A stretch of DNA of 40,051 nt from an uncultured archaeon (GTDB lineage Archaea > Aenigmatarchaeota > Aenigmatarchaeia > QMZS01): contig CAYLRQ010000001.1 of the NCBI GenBank assembly GCA_964386335.1, positions 13,568-53,618 of the forward strand. Direction: 5' to 3'. A program made the position numbers and the translations under genes. This document shows positions 1-21,328 of this stretch, in pieces. The notes beneath the pieces are model-generated. The model saw nothing but the letters and a program-made list of their open reading frames with translations, was not told the DNA's origin and ran no database searches. Every line of letters begins with the position of its first letter. Within the stretch, counting starts at the first letter, position 1.

Positions 1-6
1 AATATA

Positions 7-753
7 ATGTTTCTAAAACTAAAAACAAGAGACTTCAATTTTCAGAAAATTTTTAATTCTGGATTATTTTATTTCTTTTATGAATCTGAACCTGTTAGAG
101 AAATTTACTTCAATGGAAAACTTTTTAAATTAGAATTCCGGCAGAAAAATAATTGCCTGATCATAACTTGCCCTATGAAATTTAAAAAAGAGGAGAGAGA
201 CAATCTAATCAGAAGAATAAAATATTGTTTTGGTCTGGAAGAAGACTTGACAGATTTTTATAAAATCTGCGAAAAAGATCCCGTGCTCAAAGACCATCTC
301 GAAAAAATAAAAGAAACGAGAATCATCTCCGCTTTTTCAGATTTTGAATCTCTGGTTGGAGCGATAATCTCGCAGAATAACTCTTATAAAAACTACAGAA
401 GACAGATGTATTCGGTTTATAAAAAAATAAATTTTATTCCGGAAAATTATACAGAAAAAAAACTATCTGGATTGAAATTGGGTTACAAAATTTCTTTTTT
501 GGTTGGCCTTGCTAAAACTTTTGGAAAAATTGAAATCGGAAAAATAAAGGGAATAGGCAAATATTCAATAAATTTATTTGAGATATTTCAGAGGAGAAAC
601 TACAATTGTTTTTATATGGATTGCCTAACAGAAAAAATTCTAAGAGAAAAATATAAAATAAACGACAATTTTGAAGAAAACACAAAAAGACTTTGGGGAA
701 AATACCGAGGTCTCGCCGAAGCTTATTTACAGAGATTTTTTGAGAGAAAATAA
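7..753 (+). CDS. HhH-GPD superfamily DNA glycosylase (Ogg/AlkA-like)
   Basis: 248-aa ORF. 'LVGAIISQNNS' core and helix-hairpin-helix-like 'IKGIGKYSINLFEIF' followed by an Asp-containing segment resemble HhH-GPD glycosylases. Motif-level recognition only. Confidence 0.5.
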   Translation: MFLKLKTRDFNFQKIFNSGLFYFFYESEPVREIYFNGKLFKLEFRQKNNCLIITCPMKFKKEERDNLIRRIKYCFGLEEDLTDFYKICEKDPVLKDHLEKIKETRIISAFSDFESLVGAIISQNNSYKNYRRQMYSVYKKINFIPENYTEKKLSGLKLGYKISFLVGLAKTFGKIEIGKIKGIGKYSINLFEIFQRRNYNCFYMDCLTEKILREKYKINDNFEENTKRLWGKYRGLAEAYLQRFFERK

Positions 754-1216: not shown

Positions 1217-2557
1217 ATGGATCTATTAAATATACTTCCAGGAGTTGCAAATCCAAAAACAAGACTAAATTTTAAGGATAGATTAAAATGGACAGGAATA
1301 GGTCTGTTGTTGTTCTATTTGATGGGTTTTATACATGTTGCCGGAGCCCAGGCTGAAGTTTATGACAGATTCAAGCAGATTTCTGTCTTGATGGGTTCTA
1401 AATTTGGAACTCTTGCAACTTTGGGAATTGGTCCAATAGTTACGGCTTCTATTCTTTTGCAGGTTTTGGTCGGTTCCAAAATAATAAATTGGGATTTGAA
1501 TACAAAAGAAGGAAGATCAAAATTTCAGGGAACACAAAAACTTCTCGCCATTGCTTTCTGTTTTTTGGAAGGTTTCGCTTATGTCCTGTTTGGGGCGGTT
1601 CCCGCCAGTTCACCTTCATTAATACCCATGGTAGGTCTACAAATTGCTCTCGGTGGTTTAATAATTTTATTCCTTGATGAAGTGATAATGAAATGGGGCA
1701 TCGGCTCGGGTGTTTCCCTATTTATTGCCGCCGGGGTTTCAGAGAGAGTATTTATTGGTTTGTTCTCTCCTTTTGAAAAGGCAGGGGCAATTGCACAATT
1801 GATATACGGCTTTTCAACTGCAAATTTTGTTCTCGTTGGAATGGCGGTCACAACAATTGCGGCAACTATTCTAATTTTTGCTATTTGCCTGTATGCTCAG
1901 TCAATTAAAGTAGAAATTCCTCTGGCCTTTTCCCAACTGAGAGGTTTTGGAAGAAGATGGCCTTTGAATTTCTTTTATACTTCAAACATTCCGGTAATTC
2001 TGGCAGCGGCATTAATTATAAATATATCTATGGTTGGAGCAATGCTGGATTCAAAAGGAATAAGCATCCTTGGAAAATTTGATGAATCTGGAACTCCTGC
2101 TCCAGGAGGAATTGTCTATTATCTAACGCCCCCTCACAATGTTCTTCAGAAGTTCCTGTTCGGCTTTGGTCCAGATCCAGTAGATGTTGTTAGAATTTTT
2201 ACTTATTTGGTTTTTTTGACAATTCTCTGTGTCGTGTTTTCTATATTCTGGGTTGAAACTGCAAATATGGGTCCCGAGGCCGTTGCCGATCAAATTTCAA
2301 ATATTGGCATGCAAATCCCGGGATTTAGAAAAGATAAGAGAATTCTTATAAAAATATTGAGTAAATACATATATCCGCTTACTGTATTGGGTGGAATTGC
2401 CGTAGGTATTTTGGCCGCCCTGGCAGATTTTACCGGAGCTTTGGGTACGGGAACCGGAATTTTACTTACGGTGATGATTTTATACAATTTCTATGAGAGA
2501 ATTTCCCAGCAATATATAGAAGATATGAATCCTGCTGTAAGAAAGTTCTTTAAATAA
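1217..2557 (+). CDS. secY: Preprotein translocase subunit SecY
   Basis: 446-aa polytopic membrane protein. 'RLKWTGIGLLLFYLM', 'LGIGPIVTASILLQ' and 'WGIGSGVSLFIAAG' are SecY/Sec61alpha signatures. It follows uL15. Confidence 0.93.
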   Translation: MDLLNILPGVANPKTRLNFKDRLKWTGIGLLLFYLMGFIHVAGAQAEVYDRFKQISVLMGSKFGTLATLGIGPIVTASILLQVLVGSKIINWDLNTKEGRSKFQGTQKLLAIAFCFLEGFAYVLFGAVPASSPSLIPMVGLQIALGGLIILFLDEVIMKWGIGSGVSLFIAAGVSERVFIGLFSPFEKAGAIAQLIYGFSTANFVLVGMAVTTIAATILIFAICLYAQSIKVEIPLAFSQLRGFGRRWPLNFFYTSNIPVILAAALIINISMVGAMLDSKGISILGKFDESGTPAPGGIVYYLTPPHNVLQKFLFGFGPDPVDVVRIFTYLVFLTILCVVFSIFWVETANMGPEAVADQISNIGMQIPGFRKDKRILIKILSKYIYPLTVLGGIAVGILAALADFTGALGTGTGILLTVMILYNFYERISQQYIEDMNPAVRKFFK

Positions 2558-2700
2558 ATAGTGAGAAGAAGGTGCCCGCACTATTTAAATTCTATCATAA
2601 CCTCAATGCTCTCCACAGGCATTCTCTGACTTTTCTCTTATTTCATATCAAGCTATTCTTTACTTCAATTACAAAAGTTACCAATTCAAATTAGAGAATT

Positions 2701-5094
2701 TTATAGATGGCAAATAACTTCAAAATTTCCCTCTCTAAATGAAACTTCTTCAACTCTGTTTGTTCCCTTTATGTCCGGCAGAACCCGTTTTAATTTCTCA
2801 ATATCTTCCTTTTTAGCCGCTATTTCGATTTTGCTGATTTGTTTTCCAAGAGATAATCTGTTCGATATTTTCCACCTGCGAACTTCCGAAATTACTTCTT
2901 TCAGCAACATGCCGGTTTTTAGAGATTCTCTGTCTTCAATTATTTTTTCGGGAAAATTAGATAAATGAATACTCTTGTCTTTCTCCATTTCTTTAAATAA
3001 AATCTGATAAATCTCTTCCGTAATATAAGGAATAAATGGGGCGAATAACTTGAGTATTCCAAGCAAAACATTATACAAAGTCCATTTAGCACTTAGTTTT
3101 GACTTTTCGTCCTCTCCGTAAATTCTATATTTGACTATTTCAAGATAAAAGTCGCAGAACTCGTGTTTGAAAAACATTTCCGTAATTCTTCTCGCCTCGC
3201 TGAGTTCATATTTGCCAAAATATTTGTGATAATCTTCAATAACAAGACCGAATCTCGTCAGGATCCATCTGTCAACAACAGTTAATTCGGGTTTTTTTAG
3301 TTTTTCAATATTTTGATGTATAAATCTCGAAGCATTCCAGAGTTTAATTAAAATATCCATGTTATGTTTTAAATCTTCCTCTCTAAAAGGCAAATCTTCC
3401 CCGATTTTTGCCGTTGTTGCCCAGAGCCTAATGGCGTCAGCACAATATTTTTCAATAATCTTTAAGGGGTCTATTATATTTCCAAGAGATTTTGACATTT
3501 TCTTTCCTTTCCTGTCAAGACCATGACCGGAAATCATTATATCTTTCCAGGGTTGTTTATCTAAATGCAAGTAAGATTTCAATATTGTGTAAAATGCCCA
3601 TGTTCTAATGATGTCGTGTCCTTGAGGTCTAAGAGACATCGGAAATATTTTTTCAAAAAATTCTTCATCTTCTTTCCATTTAGAATTTATCAACGGGGTG
3701 ATTGAAGAAGTAAACCAGGTATCAAATACATCCAATTCCGGAATAAATTCATTACTTCCGCATTTTGGACATTTCTTCGGATTGTCCTTCTCAGGATCTA
3801 CGGGTAATTTTTCATCTTCTGCTAAAACAACCTCTCCACAATTTTTGCAATACCAAACAGGAAACGGAACTCCATAATATCTCTGCCTTGAGATGCACCA
3901 ATCCCATTTTAAATTATTTACCCAATCTTCATAACGCCTTCTGTAAAATTTGGGATACCAGTTCACTTTTCTTCCAATTTCTATAAGTTTTTCTTTATGT
4001 TTCAGAATATTGACGAACCATTGCTTTGTAACTATGAATTCAACAGGAGTTTTACATCTCCAGCAAACGCCAACATTCTGTTTTAATTCCTCTTGTTTAT
4101 ATAAAATACCTTTTTCTTTTAAATCACTTATTATTTTTTCTCTCGCTTCTTCTATCGTCATTCCCTCGTATTGTTTTGCCATTTTATTCATTTTTCCGTC
4201 TTTTGTGATACATATTCTTAAAGGAAGATCGTGTATTTTCCACCATTCAATATCGGTCTTATCTCCAAATGTGCAAATCATCACAACTCCCGTACCAAAA
4301 TCCGGATCAACTTTTTCATCAGCAAAAATTTCAACTTCTTGTCCAAAGATGGGGACAAATGCCTTTCTGCCTATGTAATTTCTATATCTCTTATCTTCGG
4401 GATGAACCACTATTCCCACACAGGCGGGCAGCAATTCGGGTCTCGTTGTTGCTATTTTTATTTTCTCCCCATCCGACAATTCAAAAGTTAAATAATTAAG
4501 ATTTGTTATTCTTTCCTTATCATCAACTTCTGCCTGGGCCAGAGCAGTCTGATGAAAAGGACACCATATAGTTGGTTCTTCTTTTCTGTAAATTTCGCCT
4601 TTTTTATATAAATCAATAAAAGACCTTTGAGCCTGTTTTTGGCAAAAATTATCAATTGTTCTGTACAATAAATCACGGTCCCAGGAAAATCCCAAAGCTT
4701 CAAAAATTTTAGAATATTCAAGTTCTAGTTCTGTGGCAATATTGAAACACATTTTCCTGAATTCGTTTCTTTCAATGGTTGCTTTGGATACTTTTTTTGT
4801 TTCTTCAACATATTTTTCAGTTGGAAGCCCGTTATCATCAAAACAAGTTGGAAAGAAAACTTCATATCCGAGCATCCTTTTATATCTTGCAATATATTCA
4901 AAATGAGTATAACTCATAACGTGGCCAATATGCATCTTTCCGCTCGGCGTTATCGGTGGAACATCTATGGAGAATATATTTTTCCCCGACTTTATATTAA
5001 ACTTATAAATTTTTTCTTTTTTCCAGAACGCTCTCCATTTTTCTTCAATTTTTCCTAAATCCGGTCTCTTTGGCAAAGTTTCCATAATTAGCAT
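2701..5094 (-). CDS. valS: Valyl-tRNA synthetase (class I aaRS)
   Basis: 797 aa. HIGH motif 'SGKMHIGH', KMSKS motif 'KMSKSLGN', a CP1 editing-type insertion and Zn-knuckle 'CWRCKTP...CKNCG...CPKCG'. Size and N-terminal pattern fit archaeal ValRS better than IleRS or LeuRS. An alternative start is at 5085. Confidence 0.8.
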   Translation of the reverse strand: MLIMETLPKRPDLGKIEEKWRAFWKKEKIYKFNIKSGKNIFSIDVPPITPSGKMHIGHVMSYTHFEYIARYKRMLGYEVFFPTCFDDNGLPTEKYVEETKKVSKATIERNEFRKMCFNIATELELEYSKIFEALGFSWDRDLLYRTIDNFCQKQAQRSFIDLYKKGEIYRKEEPTIWCPFHQTALAQAEVDDKERITNLNYLTFELSDGEKIKIATTRPELLPACVGIVVHPEDKRYRNYIGRKAFVPIFGQEVEIFADEKVDPDFGTGVVMICTFGDKTDIEWWKIHDLPLRICITKDGKMNKMAKQYEGMTIEEAREKIISDLKEKGILYKQEELKQNVGVCWRCKTPVEFIVTKQWFVNILKHKEKLIEIGRKVNWYPKFYRRRYEDWVNNLKWDWCISRQRYYGVPFPVWYCKNCGEVVLAEDEKLPVDPEKDNPKKCPKCGSNEFIPELDVFDTWFTSSITPLINSKWKEDEEFFEKIFPMSLRPQGHDIIRTWAFYTILKSYLHLDKQPWKDIMISGHGLDRKGKKMSKSLGNIIDPLKIIEKYCADAIRLWATTAKIGEDLPFREEDLKHNMDILIKLWNASRFIHQNIEKLKKPELTVVDRWILTRFGLVIEDYHKYFGKYELSEARRITEMFFKHEFCDFYLEIVKYRIYGEDEKSKLSAKWTLYNVLLGILKLFAPFIPYITEEIYQILFKEMEKDKSIHLSNFPEKIIEDRESLKTGMLLKEVISEVRRWKISNRLSLGKQISKIEIAAKKEDIEKLKRVLPDIKGTNRVEEVSFREGNFEVICHL

Positions 5095-5283
5095 ACAATA
5101 TTATTTTTAGTAAATTCTGATTTAATTGCAGATTTCTTCAGATATTGTTGCCTCTAAACAAATCCGGGAAGGTAATAACTGCCAAAAAGAATTCCTGAAA
5201 AAGGAGATTTCTTCGTTAATAAAGAAACCAAAGTTATTTTTATTTCATTTGGTTTATTTAACTTAACTTTTAAATTTTTATTT

Positions 5284-5856
5284 ATGGAACCCAAACTGTT
5301 TGGAAAGTGGGAATATAATGTGGAAATATCCGATCTTGGATTGAAGAGATATATTAATCTCGAGCCAAAGATTTTGCCTAAAACAAACGGGAGAACAAAA
5401 AACAAGAATGTTGTTGAAAAACTTATTACTCATTTAATGGTTCCGGGACATAGAGGAAAAAAACACAGACTCACAAGTGGATTGTGTTCGGGAAAATATC
5501 AGACAATTTATAATATAGTCGAAAAATCCTTTGACATCATCGCGGAAAAAACGAAGAAAAATCCAATTTTGGTTTTTGTTCTGGCAATAGAAAATGCTTC
5601 TCCTTATGAATTAACGGTTTCTCAGCAAATTGGGGGAATTGTTGCAAGAAAACCCGCAATCTGCTCTCCAAAAAAGAGATTGGATTTATCTTTGAGAAGA
5701 CTCGTACAAGGAAGTTATGAAAAATCCTTTAATAAAAAGAAAAAAATGTTTGAAGCTTTGGCCGAGGAAATAATAAATGCCAGCAAAAATAGTCCGGAAA
5801 GTTATGCCATAGCAGAAAGGCAGAGAAATGAAAAAGAAGCAGAAGGCGCGAGATAA
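5284..5856 (+). CDS. rps7: 30S ribosomal protein uS7 (S7P/S5e)
   Basis: N-terminus 'LFGKWEYNVEISDLGLKRYINL' and C-terminal 'AIAERQRNEKEAEGAR' are typical of archaeal S7. 190 aa. Confidence 0.88.
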   Translation: MEPKLFGKWEYNVEISDLGLKRYINLEPKILPKTNGRTKNKNVVEKLITHLMVPGHRGKKHRLTSGLCSGKYQTIYNIVEKSFDIIAEKTKKNPILVFVLAIENASPYELTVSQQIGGIVARKPAICSPKKRLDLSLRRLVQGSYEKSFNKKKKMFEALAEEIINASKNSPESYAIAERQRNEKEAEGAR

Positions 5857-6496: not shown

Positions 6497-6777
6497 GTTT
6501 TCCTCTTGGATTTTCTCGATTTTCCCGGCAGAGATATTCTCCTGTGCCTTGCGCAACTCAAACAAACATACAATCTTTTTGAGGGCAACATTAAACTATT
6601 TTTGGTTATTTCCTTTTTCATTGTGGGATCTGATATGGAAAATCCGCTTTTTTTTAGAAATGTTTTATATTTTGGAACTTTTTTCCCGCAAAAAGAACAT
6701 ATTACCATCGACTCTGTTCCTCTTCCCCTTCCATGCTTATGGACTCTCTTATAAGGTGCCTTTACCATAAATAACAT
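6493..6777 (-). CDS. rps26e: 30S ribosomal protein eS26 (S26e)
   Basis: 'KHGRGRGTESMVICSFCGKKVPKYK' and 'LYVCLSCARHRRI' align by eye to eukaryotic/archaeal S26e (GRGHV..RC.NC...VPKDKAI ... YCVSCAIH). The start may be the internal Met at 6768. Confidence 0.78.
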   Translation of the reverse strand: MLFMVKAPYKRVHKHGRGRGTESMVICSFCGKKVPKYKTFLKKSGFSISDPTMKKEITKNSLMLPSKRLYVCLSCARHRRISLPGKSRKSKRKT

Positions 6778-16776: not shown

Positions 16777-17635
16777 TGCAAGTATTTTAAAATCTGAAGG
16801 TGTTGAATTGATGAGAATTTCAGAAGCTTTAAATAAATATGGGTGGTTAAAAAAATTTTTATATGGAAAACCAAAAGAAGGCTATTTTATATTTGTTAAG
16901 AAGCAGATAAAATATCCTCTTATTACTTGCGTAACCATTAATTCCAAAAAGATAAAACAGGAAATGCAGAACATAGTGATAATTGATAAAAATTTGAAAA
17001 TTTCCATGCAGGGAACATGCAGTTCGTTAAAGAAAGATTTGGAGGGGGTGCATTACGCAAGAGGCAAGATAATCCTGAAGGAAGGCGCTCATCTTAAATA
17101 CAATCATCTGCACTCATGGAACGATGGAGATGAAGTAAATTCGAATTATGAATTTTATTTAGAGAAAAACTCCAGACTGGATTATAATTACAATACTGTT
17201 TCATCACCAAAAAATTTATCGCTTACAACAAAAGTTGTGTGTTTGAAAAAGTCTGCTGCAAATCTGAAGATAAGCGGTATCTGCAAGAATTCTAAGATGA
17301 AAATAAAAGAGAATTTAATATTGAAAGAAAATAATTCCTCCGGCATACTGAAATTGAGATTTGTTGGAAAAGAGAACAGCGAAATTTTATCGCACTCGTC
17401 AATTACGGCGGAAGCAGAATGCAAAGGTCATTTGGATTGTCAGGGTTTGCTCGTTGATAAAACTTCAAAAATTTCATTAATTCCAGAATTGGCGTGCAAA
17501 GACAACAGATCTCAGATAACACACGAAGCATCAATTGGAAAAATCTCCGAGGAAGAACTGCATTATCTCAGAACAAGGGGTTTGAACGAGCAGGAGGCAA
17601 TAGATTTGATAGTCAATGGTTTTTTGGAAATATAG
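16727..17635 (+). CDS. sufBD: Fe-S cluster assembly scaffold SufB/SufD family protein
   Basis: C-terminus 'ITHEASIGKISEEELHYLRTRGLNEQEAIDLIVNGF' is the SufB/SufD signature. The short 302-aa form occurs in reduced archaea. The start may be the downstream Met at 16811, which avoids a 50-nt overlap with sufC. The last ~21 nt plus the stop lie inside the 30-bp direct repeat. Confidence 0.8.
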   Translation: MIMKNAKNANYIQRDHSASILKSEGVELMRISEALNKYGWLKKFLYGKPKEGYFIFVKKQIKYPLITCVTINSKKIKQEMQNIVIIDKNLKISMQGTCSSLKKDLEGVHYARGKIILKEGAHLKYNHLHSWNDGDEVNSNYEFYLEKNSRLDYNYNTVSSPKNLSLTTKVVCLKKSAANLKISGICKNSKMKIKENLILKENNSSGILKLRFVGKENSEILSHSSITAEAECKGHLDCQGLLVDKTSKISLIPELACKDNRSQITHEASIGKISEEELHYLRTRGLNEQEAIDLIVNGFLEI

Positions 17636-17644
17636 AAAATTAAA
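17615..17644. repeat. Direct repeat, left copy (aatggttttttggaaatatagaaaattaaa)
   Basis: A 30-bp string covering the sufBD C-terminal codons and TAG stop. It is repeated perfectly at 20029-20058. Confidence 0.95.
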
Positions 17645-17790
17645 AAATAAGAATCTTCATTCGGAGGATAGATTTTTGTTTCCATTTTTTATATTTAAGT
17701 TCATAAATAAAGTATGAGCCAAAGATTTATAAAATTTCGCTTTAACTCCTATTTGAGAGATCATACGAATAAAAAGTGTGTGAAATACTC

Positions 17791-17814
17791 GTTAGTTGCA
17801 ATTTTTGGCGGTGC
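17791..17814. repeat. Unit 1, 5' inverted-repeat arm (gttagttgc ... ttggcggtgc)
   Basis: gttagttgc (17791-17799) is the exact reverse complement of gcaactaac (18222-18230). tttttggcggtgc (17802-17814) pairs with gcaccgccgaaaa (18171-18183) with one G-T position. Confidence 0.85.
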
Positions 17815-17838
17815 TTTAAAGCGAAAGGTATTTAATTT

Positions 17839-18165
17839 ATGACTGAAGAAAAACGATTAATTAGCTATTGTGGAATTTGTTGTTCATTATGTCCCGCTTT
17901 CAGAGAAAAAGAGTGTCCCGGATGCCAAAAACTTTTAGAATTATCTGGTAGATGTGAAATTGCTAAATGTGCAAGCTCAAGAAATATTGAGTGCTGCTTT
18001 TTGTGTAAAGATTTCCCTTGTAAGTTGTTTGAAGAAGGTTTTGATTGGAATTTGGATGAAATTCCAGAATTCAAGGAATTCAAACTTGGTATAGTTAAGT
18101 GGAAACCCTATAGCAAAGAATATATCAGATTGTTTAAAATTGGAAAAGAAAAAACAGAAAAATAA
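17839..18165 (+). CDS. DUF3795-like Cys-rich (putative metal-binding) protein
   Basis: 108 aa. 'CGICCSLCPAFREKECPGCQK...CEIAKCASSRNIECCFLCKDFPC' matches the DUF3795 cysteine pattern. It is enclosed by the unit-1 inverted repeats. Confidence 0.6.
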   Translation: MTEEKRLISYCGICCSLCPAFREKECPGCQKLLELSGRCEIAKCASSRNIECCFLCKDFPCKLFEEGFDWNLDEIPEFKEFKLGIVKWKPYSKEYIRLFKIGKEKTEK

Positions 18166-18170
18166 TTTTC

Positions 18171-18230
18171 GCACCGCCGAAAACTCTTCGGCTTACTTCG
18201 TAAGCCTCGCCACTATCGTGGGCAACTAAC
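18171..18230. repeat. Unit 1, 3' inverted-repeat arm with inserted hairpins
   Basis: It starts 5 nt after the stop codon. gcaccgcc pairs back to 17807-17814. Local hairpins are gccgaa/ttcggc (18176-18192) and ggcttac-ttc-gtaagcc (18190-18206). It ends with gcaactaac. Visibly GC-rich. Confidence 0.85.
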
Positions 18231-18231
18231 A

Positions 18232-18301
18232 GCAAATATGCGAGAAATCTGCACTTCGTTTGATTTTCCCAAATCGCCTATCGGCGACTTCGCATATTTG
18301 C
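18232..18301. repeat. 12-bp perfect-stem hairpin at the junction between units 1 and 2
   Basis: gcaaatatgcga (18232-18243) pairs with tcgcatatttgc (18290-18301). An inner hairpin is tcgcc-tatc-ggcga (18274-18287). The hairpin is flanked by AACTAAC on the left and GTTAAGT on the right. Confidence 0.85.
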
Positions 18302-18306
18302 GATAT

Positions 18307-18363
18307 GTTAAGTCCAATTGAGGTCGGCTCGCAAGTATGATATCTCCCAAATGGGCGGGCTTT
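18307..18363. repeat. Unit 2, 5' inverted-repeat arm (three blocks)
   Basis: gttaagtcc (18307-18315), ttgaggtcggc (18318-18328) and gggcgggcttt (18353-18363) are reverse complements of 19577-19585 (9/9), 19507-19517 (11/11) and 19483-19493 (10/11). Confidence 0.88.
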
Positions 18364-18400
18364 CAAAAGATTTTTATATCTTTAATCATTGACTAAAATT

Positions 18401-19483
18401 ATGTTGTATAAAATTAAAGGAAAACAAACAGAAAAAGTAAATCAAACAAAATTTAAACAAGAAGAAAAATTAGAAAAAGATTTGGAAGATTGGATAGAGA
18501 ATAATCCATCTATCTTAGGAGAAAGGTTATTAATAATAGGGAGACAGGTCCAAATACCTGAAGTTTATGATAGAATTGATTTATTAGCTCTAGATACTAA
18601 TGGAAACGTAGTCATAATAGAATTAAAGAAAGGGGGACTTAAAGATCCAGTAGATATCCAATCTTTGAGATATGCTTCCTATGTTTCAAGGTGGGAATAC
18701 GAGGATTTAGAAAAACAAGCGAAGAACTATTTTTCTGAAAAAGGTGAAGAAGAATTTAATTTTAATGACAAATTTGAAGAATTTTGTTCATCTGCTGGGA
18801 TTGATGAAATTCCAGATTTAAATCAGGATCAAAGGATAATTATAGTTGGAAGTAAATTAAAGGAGAAATTAGGTTCTGTTGCATTGTGGTTAAGAGAACA
18901 CAGCATAGACATAAAAATTATTGAAGTTTCCCTTTACAAAGACGGAGATAATTTATTTTTATCCCCTCAAGTGATAATCCCTGTTCCTACAACAGAGAAG
19001 TTCGAGATTGGTAAACACGCTTTAAGGAAGGATAGACCTTGGTTAAGCAATGGTGAAGATTGGCATTTAAATAAAAGATGTGGAAAAATAATGAAAGAAA
19101 AATTAATTCAATTCAATAATCTAATTAATGAGAACTTTGAGACAGTCGAAGGTCCAAATTGGAATCAAAAATTTTATGTTTCTTTTAAAGAAGGAAATCA
19201 TATTTGGATATATGTTAATACTCATAAAACAACTCTTGTTTTTAATTTTTTAATTAAAAAAGGGGACATGAATGTAAATAAAATATCCGAAGATTTAGGA
19301 ATAAAAATATTTGATAGAGGATCTTCATTATCTGAAAAATTACAATTAGAAAGTTCTGTAGAAATTACAAATAAAGGAGAATATGATAGAATTAGAATGA
19401 GAATAAAAAAAGAATTTAATATTTCTTCTGATAAGTTCTTGAATTTTGTTAAAAATTGCTTCAATTCATTTAAACAAGTATAA
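18401..19483 (+). CDS. NucS-C/DUF91-like PD-(D/E)XK nuclease domain protein with uncharacterised C-terminal domain
   Basis: N-terminal 'LEDWIENNPSILGERLLIIGRQVQIPEVYDRIDLLALDTNGNVVIIELKKG...DIQSLRY' matches the NucS C-terminal / restriction-endonuclease-like motif (D...E-x-K, then Q-L-x-Y). The ATG at 18401 is preferred over the TTG at 18389 used by the ORF track. The C-terminal ~170 aa are unassigned, possibly DUF4268-like. Confidence 0.68.
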   Translation: MLYKIKGKQTEKVNQTKFKQEEKLEKDLEDWIENNPSILGERLLIIGRQVQIPEVYDRIDLLALDTNGNVVIIELKKGGLKDPVDIQSLRYASYVSRWEYEDLEKQAKNYFSEKGEEEFNFNDKFEEFCSSAGIDEIPDLNQDQRIIIVGSKLKEKLGSVALWLREHSIDIKIIEVSLYKDGDNLFLSPQVIIPVPTTEKFEIGKHALRKDRPWLSNGEDWHLNKRCGKIMKEKLIQFNNLINENFETVEGPNWNQKFYVSFKEGNHIWIYVNTHKTTLVFNFLIKKGDMNVNKISEDLGIKIFDRGSSLSEKLQLESSVEITNKGEYDRIRMRIKKEFNISSDKFLNFVKNCFNSFKQV

Positions 19484-19585
19484 AAGCCCACCCTTTATTT
19501 TAGCTCGCCGACCTCAACTTCTTCGTCGCTTCGCTCCTCGACCCCGTTGCACTCTCCTCGCCTTCGGCTCGTCGGGGGACTTAAC
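19483..19585. repeat. Unit 2, 3' inverted-repeat arm with ~59-nt GC-rich insertion
   Basis: It begins at the last base of the stop codon. It contains aaagcccaccc, gccgacctcaa, a GC-rich spacer (19518-19576) and ggacttaac. Its tail 'cctcgcc..tcgt.ggg..acttaacagc' resembles the tail of the unit-1 3' arm. Confidence 0.85.
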
Positions 19586-19632
19586 AGCGATTTAACGAAA
19601 TTCAGGCGGCTCGCTTTATATTTATTCGTAAT

Positions 19633-19977
19633 TTAAATAACTTGTACTTCATAGAATCTTTCCCTTTCTTTCATAGGAACCTTTCCTTTTTCCAAATTAT
19701 TTTTATATGTAAGGATCATATTCTCAATTTCCGAGAAAGGTTTCCAAAATTCTTCTCCAAACCTATTTTCAAGTTCAGCAGCAAGGGGTGATAAGTACCT
19801 CACCCTAGGTACACTAAGCACCGATGTTATAGCTTCGTATATTTGAGCTTTAAAAACACCGCCCTCTCTCTCTATAACCTTTTCTTCTAATATCTCTAAA
19901 GGTGATTTTTTACTAGCTATTATTGTTTGGTTAATACCTCCCTTTTCGTCCCAAACATAAATCTCGTATACCCTCAT
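19633..19977 (-). CDS. Hypothetical protein (114 aa) inside the insertion
   Basis: An ATG-initiated ORF in typical intergenic context, with no recognisable motif. It is the only minus-strand ORF within the repeat-bounded segment. Confidence 0.45.
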   Translation of the reverse strand: MRVYEIYVWDEKGGINQTIIASKKSPLEILEEKVIEREGGVFKAQIYEAITSVLSVPRVRYLSPLAAELENRFGEEFWKPFSEIENMILTYKNNLEKGKVPMKERERFYEVQVI

Positions 19978-20028
19978 ATATAAAAGAGAATAATTAATCT
20001 TTATAAACCTTTCGATTCTTTAACTGCT

Positions 20029-20058
20029 AATGGTTTTTTGGAAATATAGAAAATTAAA
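20029..20058. repeat. Direct repeat, right copy
   Basis: Identical 30/30 to 17615-17644. It lies 31 nt upstream of the CDF transporter start. Confidence 0.95.
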
Positions 20059-20089
20059 GGTGGAGTAAAAAATCTTTCAAATACTAATT

Positions 20090-21328
20090 ATGTCAATAGA
20101 TTTAAAGAAAGGTCAGAAGGCGGTAGAAAAAGCGGGTTTGATTTCGTTTTTGCTGACAGCGGGAAAAGGAATTGTGGGTTTTTTATCCGGAAGTGTTGTT
20201 TTGGTTGCAGATGCTCTGCACAATTTAACCGATCTAACAATTGATATTGCTTCCTGGTTTGGATTGAAAATAGCGCAGAGAAAGCCGGATGAAAAGTTTC
20301 CCTATGGATATTATAAGGTTGAATCTCTAACAACTTTGTTCGTTTCACTTTTTATTTTATATGCTGCATGCGAATTGTTAATTGAAGGTTATTCAAGACT
20401 CTTTATTGTTTCAGAAATTGATGTGCCTTTTCTCGCCATGCTGGTCGCTTTAATTTCTTCTCTTGTCTCAATATTCATATCAAAATATTTGAAAAATACC
20501 GGAAAAAGCATAAATTCAGAACTGCTGATTGTAAATTCAAAGGAAAGATTTGTCGACGGCATTTCTTCAATTTTTGTTTTTTTGGCAATCTTTCTGAATT
20601 ATTACAAAATTCCATGCATTGAGGGAATTACGTCAATGATAATTTCCCTATTAATTTTGAAAGTGGGAATTTTTTCCATAAAAGATTCTGTTTTTTCTTT
20701 GATGGATATCAGCCCAAGTAAAGAAGAGGAGGAGAAAATAAAGAAAATCATAAAGAGTGTAAAAGGTGTTGATGATTTTACAGATCTGAAATTAAGAAAA
20801 TCTGGCCCATTCATTTTTGGAGAAGTAAAAATAAAAGTCAAAAGATTTATTAAGGTTGAAAGAGGTCATGAAATTGCAGATGAAATCGAAAACAAAATTA
20901 AAGAAAAGATAAAACAAGTTAATTCCTTTACTGTGCATGTTGAACCTTACAAAACAAGCAAACACAGAATCGCAATTCCGATTTTGAAACCTTTGGGTTT
21001 GGAATCAAAAGTGATGGAACATTTTGGAAGAGCAAATTATTTTTTGTTTGTTGACACAATCAAAAATTCAATTACCAAACATTATTCAAAGGAAAATCCC
21101 TGCAAAAAGAAAGAAGTTAGAGCTGGGCTGGAAGCCGCACATTTCATCATAAAAGAAAAAGCGGACGTTCTCATAACAAAAGAAATCGGAGAAATCTCCC
21201 TGCATATTTTAAGAGACAAACTAATTGATGTTTATAAAACAAAGGGGGAAACAGCGAAAGAAGTCATTGATAATTTTTTTGAAAATAAATTGGTCAGATT
21301 AAAAGAGCCTACAAGAGAAAAGAATTGA
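20090..21328 (+). CDS. Cation diffusion facilitator (CDF) transporter fused to a NifX/NifB-like (dinitrogenase FeMo-cofactor-binding fold) C-terminal domain
   Basis: N-terminal six-TM CDF core ('ADALHNLTDL', 'FPYGYYKVESL') plus a cytoplasmic CDF domain ('FTVHVEP'). The extra ~110-aa tail 'RIAIPI...MEHFGRANYFLFVD...AHFIIKEKADVLITKEIGEISLHILRDKLIDVY' resembles the Nitro_FeMo-Co/NifX-like fold. Confidence 0.8.
   Translation: MSIDLKKGQKAVEKAGLISFLLTAGKGIVGFLSGSVVLVADALHNLTDLTIDIASWFGLKIAQRKPDEKFPYGYYKVESLTTLFVSLFILYAACELLIEGYSRLFIVSEIDVPFLAMLVALISSLVSIFISKYLKNTGKSINSELLIVNSKERFVDGISSIFVFLAIFLNYYKIPCIEGITSMIISLLILKVGIFSIKDSVFSLMDISPSKEEEEKIKKIIKSVKGVDDFTDLKLRKSGPFIFGEVKIKVKRFIKVERGHEIADEIENKIKEKIKQVNSFTVHVEPYKTSKHRIAIPILKPLGLESKVMEHFGRANYFLFVDTIKNSITKHYSKENPCKKKEVRAGLEAAHFIIKEKADVLITKEIGEISLHILRDKLIDVYKTKGETAKEVIDNFFENKLVRLKEPTREKN

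Follow-up and report, generated by a model that had tools for sequence, protein, structure and literature searches.

In a 40,051-nucleotide stretch of DNA from an uncultured archaeon of the Aenigmatarchaeota (contig CAYLRQ010000001.1, positions 13,568 to 53,618; the whole stretch is referred to here as the window, and its own numbering is used), we analyzed an open reading frame (ORF) for a 360-residue protein with a PD-(D/E)XK nuclease motif. Perfect 30-nt direct repeats delimit a 2414-bp insertion that contains the ORF, and the ORF is itself bracketed by inverted repeats. It is probably a stand-alone, single-gene defense nuclease of the PDC-S11 (Madara) family that is carried as cargo of an integron-like gene cassette. 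A first-pass annotation, made from the sequence alone, had proposed three roles for the protein: a defense-type nuclease carried as cargo, a free-standing homing endonuclease, or a TnsA-like mobility nuclease that recognizes the GC-rich arms of the inverted repeats. The match to PDC-S11, a cassette site that is generic rather than specific to this gene, and the variable presence of the gene in natural populations all favor the first of these, and the question of whether the nuclease is cargo or engine is thus answered in favor of cargo.

The nuclease and its domains

The ORF is intact on the plus strand (18401-19483), with an ATG at 18401 and a TAA at 19481-19483, and both its coordinates and the motif previously quoted for it (RIDLLALD...VVIIELKKG...QSLRY) are correct. 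The mechanical ORF starts at a TTG at 18389; all of the close homologues (27/27) start at MLYKIKG, which corresponds to the ATG at 18401. The PADLOC model PDLC04913 for PDC-S11 matches the full length of the protein (E 2.4e-46, residues 11-344), and a second PDC-S11 model, PDLC04910, matches residues 9-346 (E 6.1e-44). In an alignment of 104 homologues, the PD-(D/E)XK triad and the accompanying QxxxY motif (D60, E74, K76, Q87 and Y91) are invariant, as are W214, W221, H222, C227, W254, Q256 and Y259 in the C-terminal half. The ORF product is a member of the PDC-S11 family with a conserved and intact PD-(D/E)XK catalytic domain.

An AlphaFold2 model of the full-length protein has a predicted local distance difference test (pLDDT) score of 81, with a disordered linker at residues 198-210. 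The only significant Protein Data Bank (PDB) matches to this model found with Foldseek are NucS (2vld) and EndoMS (5gke), both in the N-terminal half, and a sequence search of the PDB with the protein gave no significant match. Fold and conservation of the N-terminal module are demonstrated, and its cutting of DNA is inferred. The second half had been called uncharacterized, and this description holds: Pfam has no family for it, and when residues 205-360 were modeled alone (pLDDT 94.6, predicted template modeling score 0.88), the best TM-scores in Foldseek were 0.44-0.54, to a YdhG-like protein, with several other matches to folds like those of type III secretion chaperones. A C-terminal domain that matches no solved fold is a candidate for a new sensor module.

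The family member tested by experiment is the PDC-S11 protein of Escherichia coli ECOR34, which was named Madara in a September 2026 preprint and presented as a modification-dependent anti-phage nuclease (bioRxiv 10.64898/2026.09.05.749240). Madara restricts Tevenvirinae phages, including wild-type T4 with its glucosyl-hydroxymethylcytosine DNA but not T4(C), and its defense is lost upon a D63A substitution in the N-terminal NucS-like PD-(D/E)XK domain. The C-terminal domain was described as EVE-like and modification-sensing, and its authors leave "a non-specific abortive response" possible (bioRxiv 10.64898/2026.09.05.749240). We recovered an E. coli PDC-S11 protein (locus L105, 3995-4990; PDLC04909, E 2e-112), which carries Asp63 in RRIDLLAID. 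It is 29 % identical to residues 2-239 of the archaeal protein (E 1e-27), and D63 aligns with D60.

Madara and the archaeal protein have in common a single-gene organization, a length of about 330-360 residues, an N-terminal NucS-like PD-(D/E)XK domain (RID-LLA-D...IELK...QxLRY, where D63 of E. coli is D60 of the archaeon), and a middle module that extends to about residue 200-240, together with matches to PDC-S11 hidden Markov models over the full length. In contrast, the presumed sensor domains are not homologous in sequence, with the archaeal protein matching PDLC04913 and PDLC04910 and that of E. coli matching PDLC04909, and no EVE-like fold was detected in the archaeal C-terminal domain, unlike what is described for Madara. 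The settings also differ: the E. coli gene lies in a BREX-linked island, whereas the archaeal gene is on a gene cassette in a DPANN-type archaeon. Judged by sequence, the archaeal protein is a different C-terminal subtype from the E. coli protein that was tested. Because similarity ends near residue 240, PDC-S11 is a family of modular architecture, in which the nuclease half, a NucS-like cutter, is conserved and the C-terminal half can be exchanged for a different domain.

The cassette and its recombination site

The inverted repeats previously noticed around the ORF, beginning at its stop codon, are real. The local alignment of one arm with the other scores 37.3, which is higher than 300/300 shuffles (mean 20.9, sd 3.7). 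Three blocks are paired: an outer block (GTTAAGTCC at 18307 with GGACTTAAC at 19577), a middle block (TTGAGGTCGGC at 18318 with GCCGACCTCAA at 19507) and an inner block (GGGCGGGCTTT at 18353 with AAAGCCCACCC at 19483) that overlaps the final base of the stop codon. The neighboring DUF3795 gene (cassette 1) is bracketed by the same architecture, consisting of GTTAGTTGC-AATTT-TTGGCGGTGC, the ORF, and GCACCGCC...GGGCAACTAAC, where the cassette start (17791-17814) complements its own 3' GGGCAACTAAC and GCACCGCC. The unit that follows the nuclease cassette starts, on the plus strand, with AACGA-AATTC-AGGCGGCTCGC.

In both cassettes of the window, the first nine nucleotides after the G of GTT complement the cassette's own 3' R''-type box at 9/9 positions (GTTAAGTCC with GGACTTAAC, and GTTAGTTGC with GCAACTAAC); they are not complementary to the R'' box of the upstream site. 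The same relationship is found in the copy of the nuclease gene from Cloacimonadota (locus L001; TTATGTGC versus GCACATAA) and in one cassette on contig C14 of the archaeal genome (8/9), and is not met in the array on contig C45. The flanks of L001 and of a copy from a bacterial metagenome, L007, have a conserved element directly past the stop codon in common with the window. In L001 this element is followed by a hairpin whose counterpart in the window is found upstream of the nuclease gene, with compensatory changes between the two stems. Since a cassette start pairs with its own 3' R'' box, the two arms are the halves of the cassette's extended, folded recombination site. The inverted repeats are therefore the split halves of a generic cassette site, and not a target of the nuclease.

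Ten such elements from the archaeal genome and L001 could be aligned. AAC and GTT boxes are invariant in 10/10 and the inner hairpin is conserved, and the L stem shows compensatory changes in 8/11 pairs. Both boxes and the paired stem are present in the junction upstream of the nuclease gene (18220-18315). Paired cells make up 86.5 % of the alignment when partners are correctly placed and 27-47 % when they are slid, and the observed covariation was reached by 0/500 shuffles. A simple scanner for TAAC...GTTA hairpins gave 74 hits versus 146 in shuffled sequence and served only for the choice of seeds. With a covariance model built from the ten aligned elements (R1), 17 sites were detected in the 1-Mb genome at E < 0.05, distributed over 14 contigs. 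Nearly all of these sites follow a co-directional ORF at a distance of 40-90 nt. The genes ahead of these sites encode a second DUF3795 protein, a cupin, an FkbM methyltransferase, two NUDIX hydrolases, and several proteins without a family. Co-oriented arrays are present on C14 (three sites: 68-170, 1370-1472 and 1926-2035) and C45 (two or three sites: 2169-2269, 3265-3369 and 6517-6622), with spacings of 0.5-3 kb and genes for cupin, NUDIX, MBL-fold and rubrerythrin proteins in between; on C45, two sites flank the gene for rubrerythrin. The features of the region are collected in Table 1.

Table 1. The nuclease gene, its cassette and the surrounding elements (window positions unless residues are indicated).
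Feature	Position	Strand	Content or basis
PDC-S11 (Madara-family) nuclease gene, 360 aa	18401..19483	+	PDLC04913 full length, alignment, structure model
NucS-C-like PD-(D/E)XK nuclease domain	residues ~1-135		
Small beta-rich middle module	residues 144-193		
Disordered linker	residues 198-210		
C-terminal alpha/beta domain, fold without match	residues 213-360		
Left arm, 5' end of nuclease cassette	18307..18363	+	Metagenome joint ends at 18309; crossover-side GTT 18307-09, cassette start TTAAGTCC, conserved AATTG, arm blocks TTGAGGTCGGCTCGC and GGGCGGGCTTT
A/T box ATTTTTATAT, 22-31 nt upstream of ATG	18370..18379	+	Sequence
Right arm and truncated 3' site of nuclease cassette	19483..19593	+	Contig breaks 19594-19597; in order AAAGCCCACCC, GCTCGCCGACCTCAA, conserved AACTTCTTCG module, R''-type GGACTTAAC (19577-85), AG
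Complete junction site, cassette 1 (DUF3795) / nuclease cassette	18171..18315	+	R1 90.7 bits, fold z = -4.1; in order arm GCACCGCCGAAAA, hairpin module, R'' GGGCAACTAAC (AAC 18228-30), L'' 18233-43, inner hairpin CCCAAATCGCC..GGCGACTTCG, L' 18290-300, R' GTT 18307-09
Cassette 1	17791..18165	+	DUF3795 ORF 17839-18165
Next unit, 114-aa ORF (minus strand 19633-19977)	19594..19977	-	Joints and loose ends at 19594
Left 30-nt direct repeat	17615..17644	.	Covers last 22 nt of sufBD including stop codon
Right 30-nt direct repeat	20029..20058	.	31 nt upstream of CDF transporter start

These units resemble integron cassettes in several respects. Each has one gene and a folded, imperfectly palindromic site with conserved AAC...GTT boxes; the cassette start complements its own R'' box, as where a site is split at G|TT in integrons; and individual cassettes are variably present and are found across domains of life. 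As in integrons and in clusters of attC sites lacking an integron integrase (CALINs), there are small arrays of two or three sites (C14, C45) as well as single sites scattered on other contigs. In contrast to classical attC sites, however, the sites of the window family are longer and more conserved, with an additional hairpin module on the 5' side (AACTCTTCGG...), a conserved interior whose inner hairpin (CCCAAATTGCC..GGCAACTT) is invariant, a conserved AATTG 6 nt after GTT, and asymmetric spacers. Moreover, no IntI was detected in the archaeal genome and the 3' site of the nuclease cassette itself is truncated, in both of which it differs from integrons. Arrays of attC sites, mostly without an integrase, have been reported from archaeal genomes including Aenigmatarchaeota, where restriction or methylation functions account for 8.3 % of the annotated cassette proteins (Ghaly et al. 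2022; bioRxiv 10.1101/2022.02.06.479319), and bacterial integron cassettes that carry defense genes have also been published (bioRxiv 10.1101/2024.07.02.601719). Our observations accordingly do not overturn current ideas about either.

An A/T box within the cassette, between the left arm and the ATG, is likely an archaeal TATA-type promoter judging from its sequence; at the equivalent place L001 has TATAAT and AGGAGG. Two other explanations of the repeats were considered and set aside. A structured RNA or intron around the ORF was dropped, as the same elements bracket other genes and obey the cassette logic; Rfam gave nothing at gathering threshold in the window, with only a chance snoRNA match at E <= 5 in 17600-20100 and no intron match, and ARAGORN found no tRNA. 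Regulatory pairing between the 5' and 3' ends of an mRNA is unlikely, as the left arm is situated upstream of the promoter-like box.

Variation in the population and distribution among genomes

A 3.1-kb stretch of this region is present in at least 20 metagenome runs from hydrothermal vents and sediments. In two of these (X5 and X20), contigs with at least 95 % likeness join position 18309 to 19594 with one C between them. Such a joint is what would result if the DNA from G|TT at 18307 to A|TT at 19590 were precisely deleted and a single T>C change had occurred; exactly the nuclease cassette is removed. Most of 10 runs have contig breaks at 19594-19597 and 18245-18309, and in run X6 position 19594 is preceded by a different upstream site (..AATCGCATATGTTC). 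In run X2, a 1340-nt contig without mismatches covers the gene at a depth of 46 (~23 %), versus 209 for sufBD and 198 for the CDF transporter gene, and depth ratios are similar in X4 and X12. The nuclease cassette is a discrete and dispensable unit that is present in only part of the archaeal population, and the gene is polymorphic within a natural hydrothermal and sediment population.

A further variant (L112; ENA ERZ2433807) retains the nuclease, the 114-aa ORF and the CDF gene at 99.5 % identity; upstream, a gene for a 278-residue HhH-GPD (DNA glycosylase-type) protein replaces the DUF3795 gene and sufBD. The junction site in this variant is a hybrid, with a different 5' half and an identical 3' half, in which L'' and L' pair poorly. 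The exact crossover point is not fixed by these data, as the cassette-less joint fits G|TT and L112 breaks within the site. In five runs, contigs bridge 17482 to 17830 by way of nine letters (GTTGGAGAA) at a depth of 402 in X2, above that of the surroundings; these contigs probably derive from another organism or a repeat.

A word-indexed search identified 733 homologues of the nuclease. The closest, by amino-acid identity, are in Bacteroidales (86 %), Cloacimonadota (81 %, with 80 % DNA identity), Caldisericales (79 %), Altiarchaeales (79 %) and Archaeoglobales (73 %), and others at ~50 % are found in Chloroflexi, Aminicenantes, Deltaproteobacteria and Syntropharchaeales. In contrast to this wide occurrence, the gene was found in none of the 10 other species of the same genus that were searched (0/10), and 38/40 relatives in the same class gave no match, the remaining 2/40 giving weak partial matches to the nuclease half only. 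The GC content of the nuclease gene is 28-31 %, lower than that of several hosts; the archaeal genome itself is about 1.0 Mb with 32 % GC, an estimated completeness of 94 % and an archaeal small-subunit rRNA.

Elsewhere, homologues occur as a lone gene amid unrelated housekeeping or defense genes at unrelated chromosomal positions. About 13/96 of their immediate neighbors match models for restriction-modification (components of types I, II and III) or MADS defense systems, and 6/96 are mad2 of MADS. No fixed partner gene is evident, with no neighbor family represented in more than 6/96 neighbors. Homologues are also present on 356 plasmid records, mostly from Klebsiella, Escherichia and Providencia, as well as from haloarchaeal megaplasmids. 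We found no relative on viral contigs, and only two weak partial matches in a phage collection. Such a distribution characterizes an accessory defense gene with horizontal mobility rather than a repair gene.

Sites that match R1 are rare near homologues, with 84/86 loci having no match and only 2/86 carrying the site. In the Cloacimonadota copy, a homologous site follows the gene (79 bits). BLAST searches of homologue loci with the arms found L001 and L007 only, and the covariance model was needed for more. A homologue that is 51 % identical, on a GC-richer metagenome contig (L024; 1040-1620 and 2850-2900), lies behind an R1-type site (45 bits), and about 170 nt past its stop codon ...GCATAACAGAGGGGTATAAGG resembles R''/L'' of the Cloacimonadota site. 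L024 therefore extends the link between nuclease and cassette beyond the closest relatives.

The near-identical copies in different domains of life, the presence or absence of the gene at nucleotide level, and the C-terminal fold without a match are each of some value. Together with the sites, they provide a nucleotide-resolved case of a defense gene that moves as a cassette between bacteria and archaea, and the gene places a very recently validated single-gene defense family in DPANN-type archaea, whose antiviral repertoire is poorly known.

Weighing the explanations

The reading we prefer is that of a self-sufficient defense nuclease in which the N-terminal PD-(D/E)XK domain would cut DNA. 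The C-terminal domain, with its invariant aromatic and polar residues beyond a flexible linker, may recognize either some property of the invading DNA, such as a modified base, or another signal of infection, and this sensing would license cleavage by the N-terminal domain, probably in a dimer as in NucS and Madara. Such a mechanism makes a partner methyltransferase unnecessary, which fits a gene that stands alone at unrelated loci. The nuclease gene would not move itself. Instead, the cassette from 18307 to about 19593 would be moved in trans by another recombinase, and the complementarity of its ends reflects the splitting of a single folded AAC...GTT site upon integration, which leaves one half at each end. 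The cassette carries its own promoter-like box and has been exchanged between bacteria and archaea. The present copy, with a truncated 3' site, may now be immobile.

A number of observations weigh against this account. On the side of the protein, 3/5 PDC-S11 models cover only the N-terminal ~210 residues, and all similarity to the E. coli protein is lost past about residue 240. The C-terminal model had no significant Foldseek match in the PDB (best E 8.6e-3), and EVE, PUA, SRA and YTH folds were absent from its top 50 matches; since no known fold is matched, a modification-dependent trigger is only an analogy. Defense activity of the archaeal subfamily is likewise a prediction from its kinship to Madara. 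On the side of the cassette, the joint that lacks it is known from short-read contigs whose shorter side is 22 nt, and the homology of L112 begins at 18223, inside the junction site rather than at GTT. At its own 3' end the nuclease cassette has the R'' half of a site but no L''/L' stem, and R1 does not match there. In the archaeal genome (94 % complete), IntI (TIGR02249) has no match and the tyrosine recombinase family (PF00589) has no convincing one, the only match being at E 0.06. Finally, the 30-nt direct repeat around the whole insertion is not explained by cassette recombination.

The weak PF00589 match is located on a virus- or plasmid-like contig (C28, ~2000-5300; L092) that also encodes a DnaB-type helicase and a dCMP deaminase and has two ORFs resembling DNA methylases. 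In addition, the R' flank of the sites, for example in the junction site (window 18302-18315, ATATGTTAAGTCC) and on C3 (CTATGTTAAATC), resembles the TTATGTTAAAT arm of bacterial dif. This is only a lead that a Xer-type enzyme might act on the sites.

A more specific form of the preferred reading is possible, and we put it forward tentatively. The protein would be a distinct Madara subtype whose aromatic-rich sensor of unmatched fold recognizes another non-self signal, and the gene, ready for expression, would pass back and forth between ultra-small Archaea and members of the Bacteria (Bacteroidales, Cloacimonadota, Caldisericales) on non-canonical, long attC-like sites served by a recombinase other than IntI.

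Among the alternatives, the one that survives best retains a defense or addiction nuclease but with a mechanism unlike that of Madara, for example an abortive effector whose C-terminal domain binds a viral protein or a nucleotide signal as the trigger, or an exclusion gene that stabilizes the array. A C-terminal domain that is unrelated to that of E. coli and gives no EVE-like match would suit such a mechanism, as would the abortive response that the authors of Madara leave possible. We regard it as somewhat doubtful. No specific observation counters it, and as a variant of the preferred reading it differs in the trigger only.

Kinship to NucS and EndoMS could instead mean that the protein is a housekeeping repair paralogue acting as a mismatch or branched-DNA nuclease. 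These two enzymes are the best fold matches, with the same fold and catalytic residues in the PD-(D/E)XK domain, and the haloarchaeal plasmid relatives are labeled "endonuclease NucS domain-containing protein" by NCBI. However, it is the catalytic domain alone that matches. Pfam NucS_C matches residues 29-98, weakly with the whole ORF (E 8.7e-5, just under the gathering score) and at 24.2 bits against a cut-off of 24 with residues 1-204 (E 3.6e-5), whereas the NCBIfam model for NucS (NF003270) gives 34.6 bits, far under its cut-off of 216. The protein thus lacks the two-domain architecture of NucS and falls short of the family cut-off: the N-terminal DNA-binding domain of NucS is missing, and the nuclease comes at the start of the protein, opposite to the order in NucS. 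The earlier description of the protein as NucS-like is accurate for the nuclease fold but does not extend to orthology with NucS. A repair function is moreover very unlikely for a gene that is accessory rather than core, having no copy in congeners, a variable presence in the population, and plasmid-borne relatives and relatives beside defense genes. Flanking repeats are indeed missing from most homologues, but these do not look like ordinary genes for repair, and conservation of the catalytic D/E/K residues is seen.

No canonical NucS was found in the archaeal genome. A second NucS_C-like protein of 265 residues (Pfam NucS_C, E 3.2e-5, with weak matches to PDC-S11 and PDC-S18) is encoded on contig C20 (5016-6614). 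Its gene begins 16 nt past an R1-type site and is followed by an ORF that resembles a DNA methyltransferase and has an SPPY motif. The pair may be a cassette pair of restriction-modification type.

The tight bracketing of the gene by inverted repeats could also suggest that the nuclease moves the unit, as a TnsA-like or novel PD-(D/E)XK transposase that recognizes the GC-rich arms. As previously noted, it is the only enzyme with DNA-cleaving potential in the insertion, whose other ORFs encode a DUF3795 protein and a 114-residue protein without a family match, neither with a nuclease signature, and no recombinase was found in the archaeal genome. However, an identical arm architecture surrounds the DUF3795 gene, and sites of this family are found behind about 17 cargo genes that are unrelated to one another. 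The unit of three ORFs includes no TnsB-like protein or other partner, nearly all homologue loci (84/86) lack the site, the archaeal genome contains a single copy of the gene and many sites, and the family member in E. coli functions in phage defense. We therefore give this proposal hardly any credence.

Equally implausible is that the gene encodes a free-standing homing endonuclease and was copied into the sufBD-CDF junction after the enzyme had cleaved it. PD-(D/E)XK homing endonucleases exist, and the gene lies in an insertion that is absent from a congener (G007), in which the gap between sufBD and the CDF gene is only 66 nt and which provides an empty site; but homologues are at unrelated loci in all genomes examined, with no common target gene, the insertion contains two further genes and cassette junctions, and variants lose or swap the gene at the cassette boundaries and not at the sufBD-CDF junction.

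Several minor observations concern the ends of the insertion. The closest congener (G002), which has 95 % DNA identity over sufBD, was considered as an empty site and rejected, as it is rearranged past sufBD with a methionyl-tRNA synthetase gene downstream. Just inside the left direct repeat, a stretch of 50 nt (17645-17694) reproduces in minus-strand orientation, at 94 %, a sequence on contig C52 that comprises the promoter and the first 13 codons of a HemK/Mtq2-like methyltransferase gene, which suggests copying of this block from another locus or recombination with it. Lastly, in a strain variant (L107; ENA ERZ27248308) an extra 860-nt insertion (2518-3377) begins precisely where the right direct repeat ends (window 20058/20076) and has ORFs of 161 and 66 aa on the minus strand; the spacer between sufBD and the CDF gene thus has the appearance of a hot spot for insertions.

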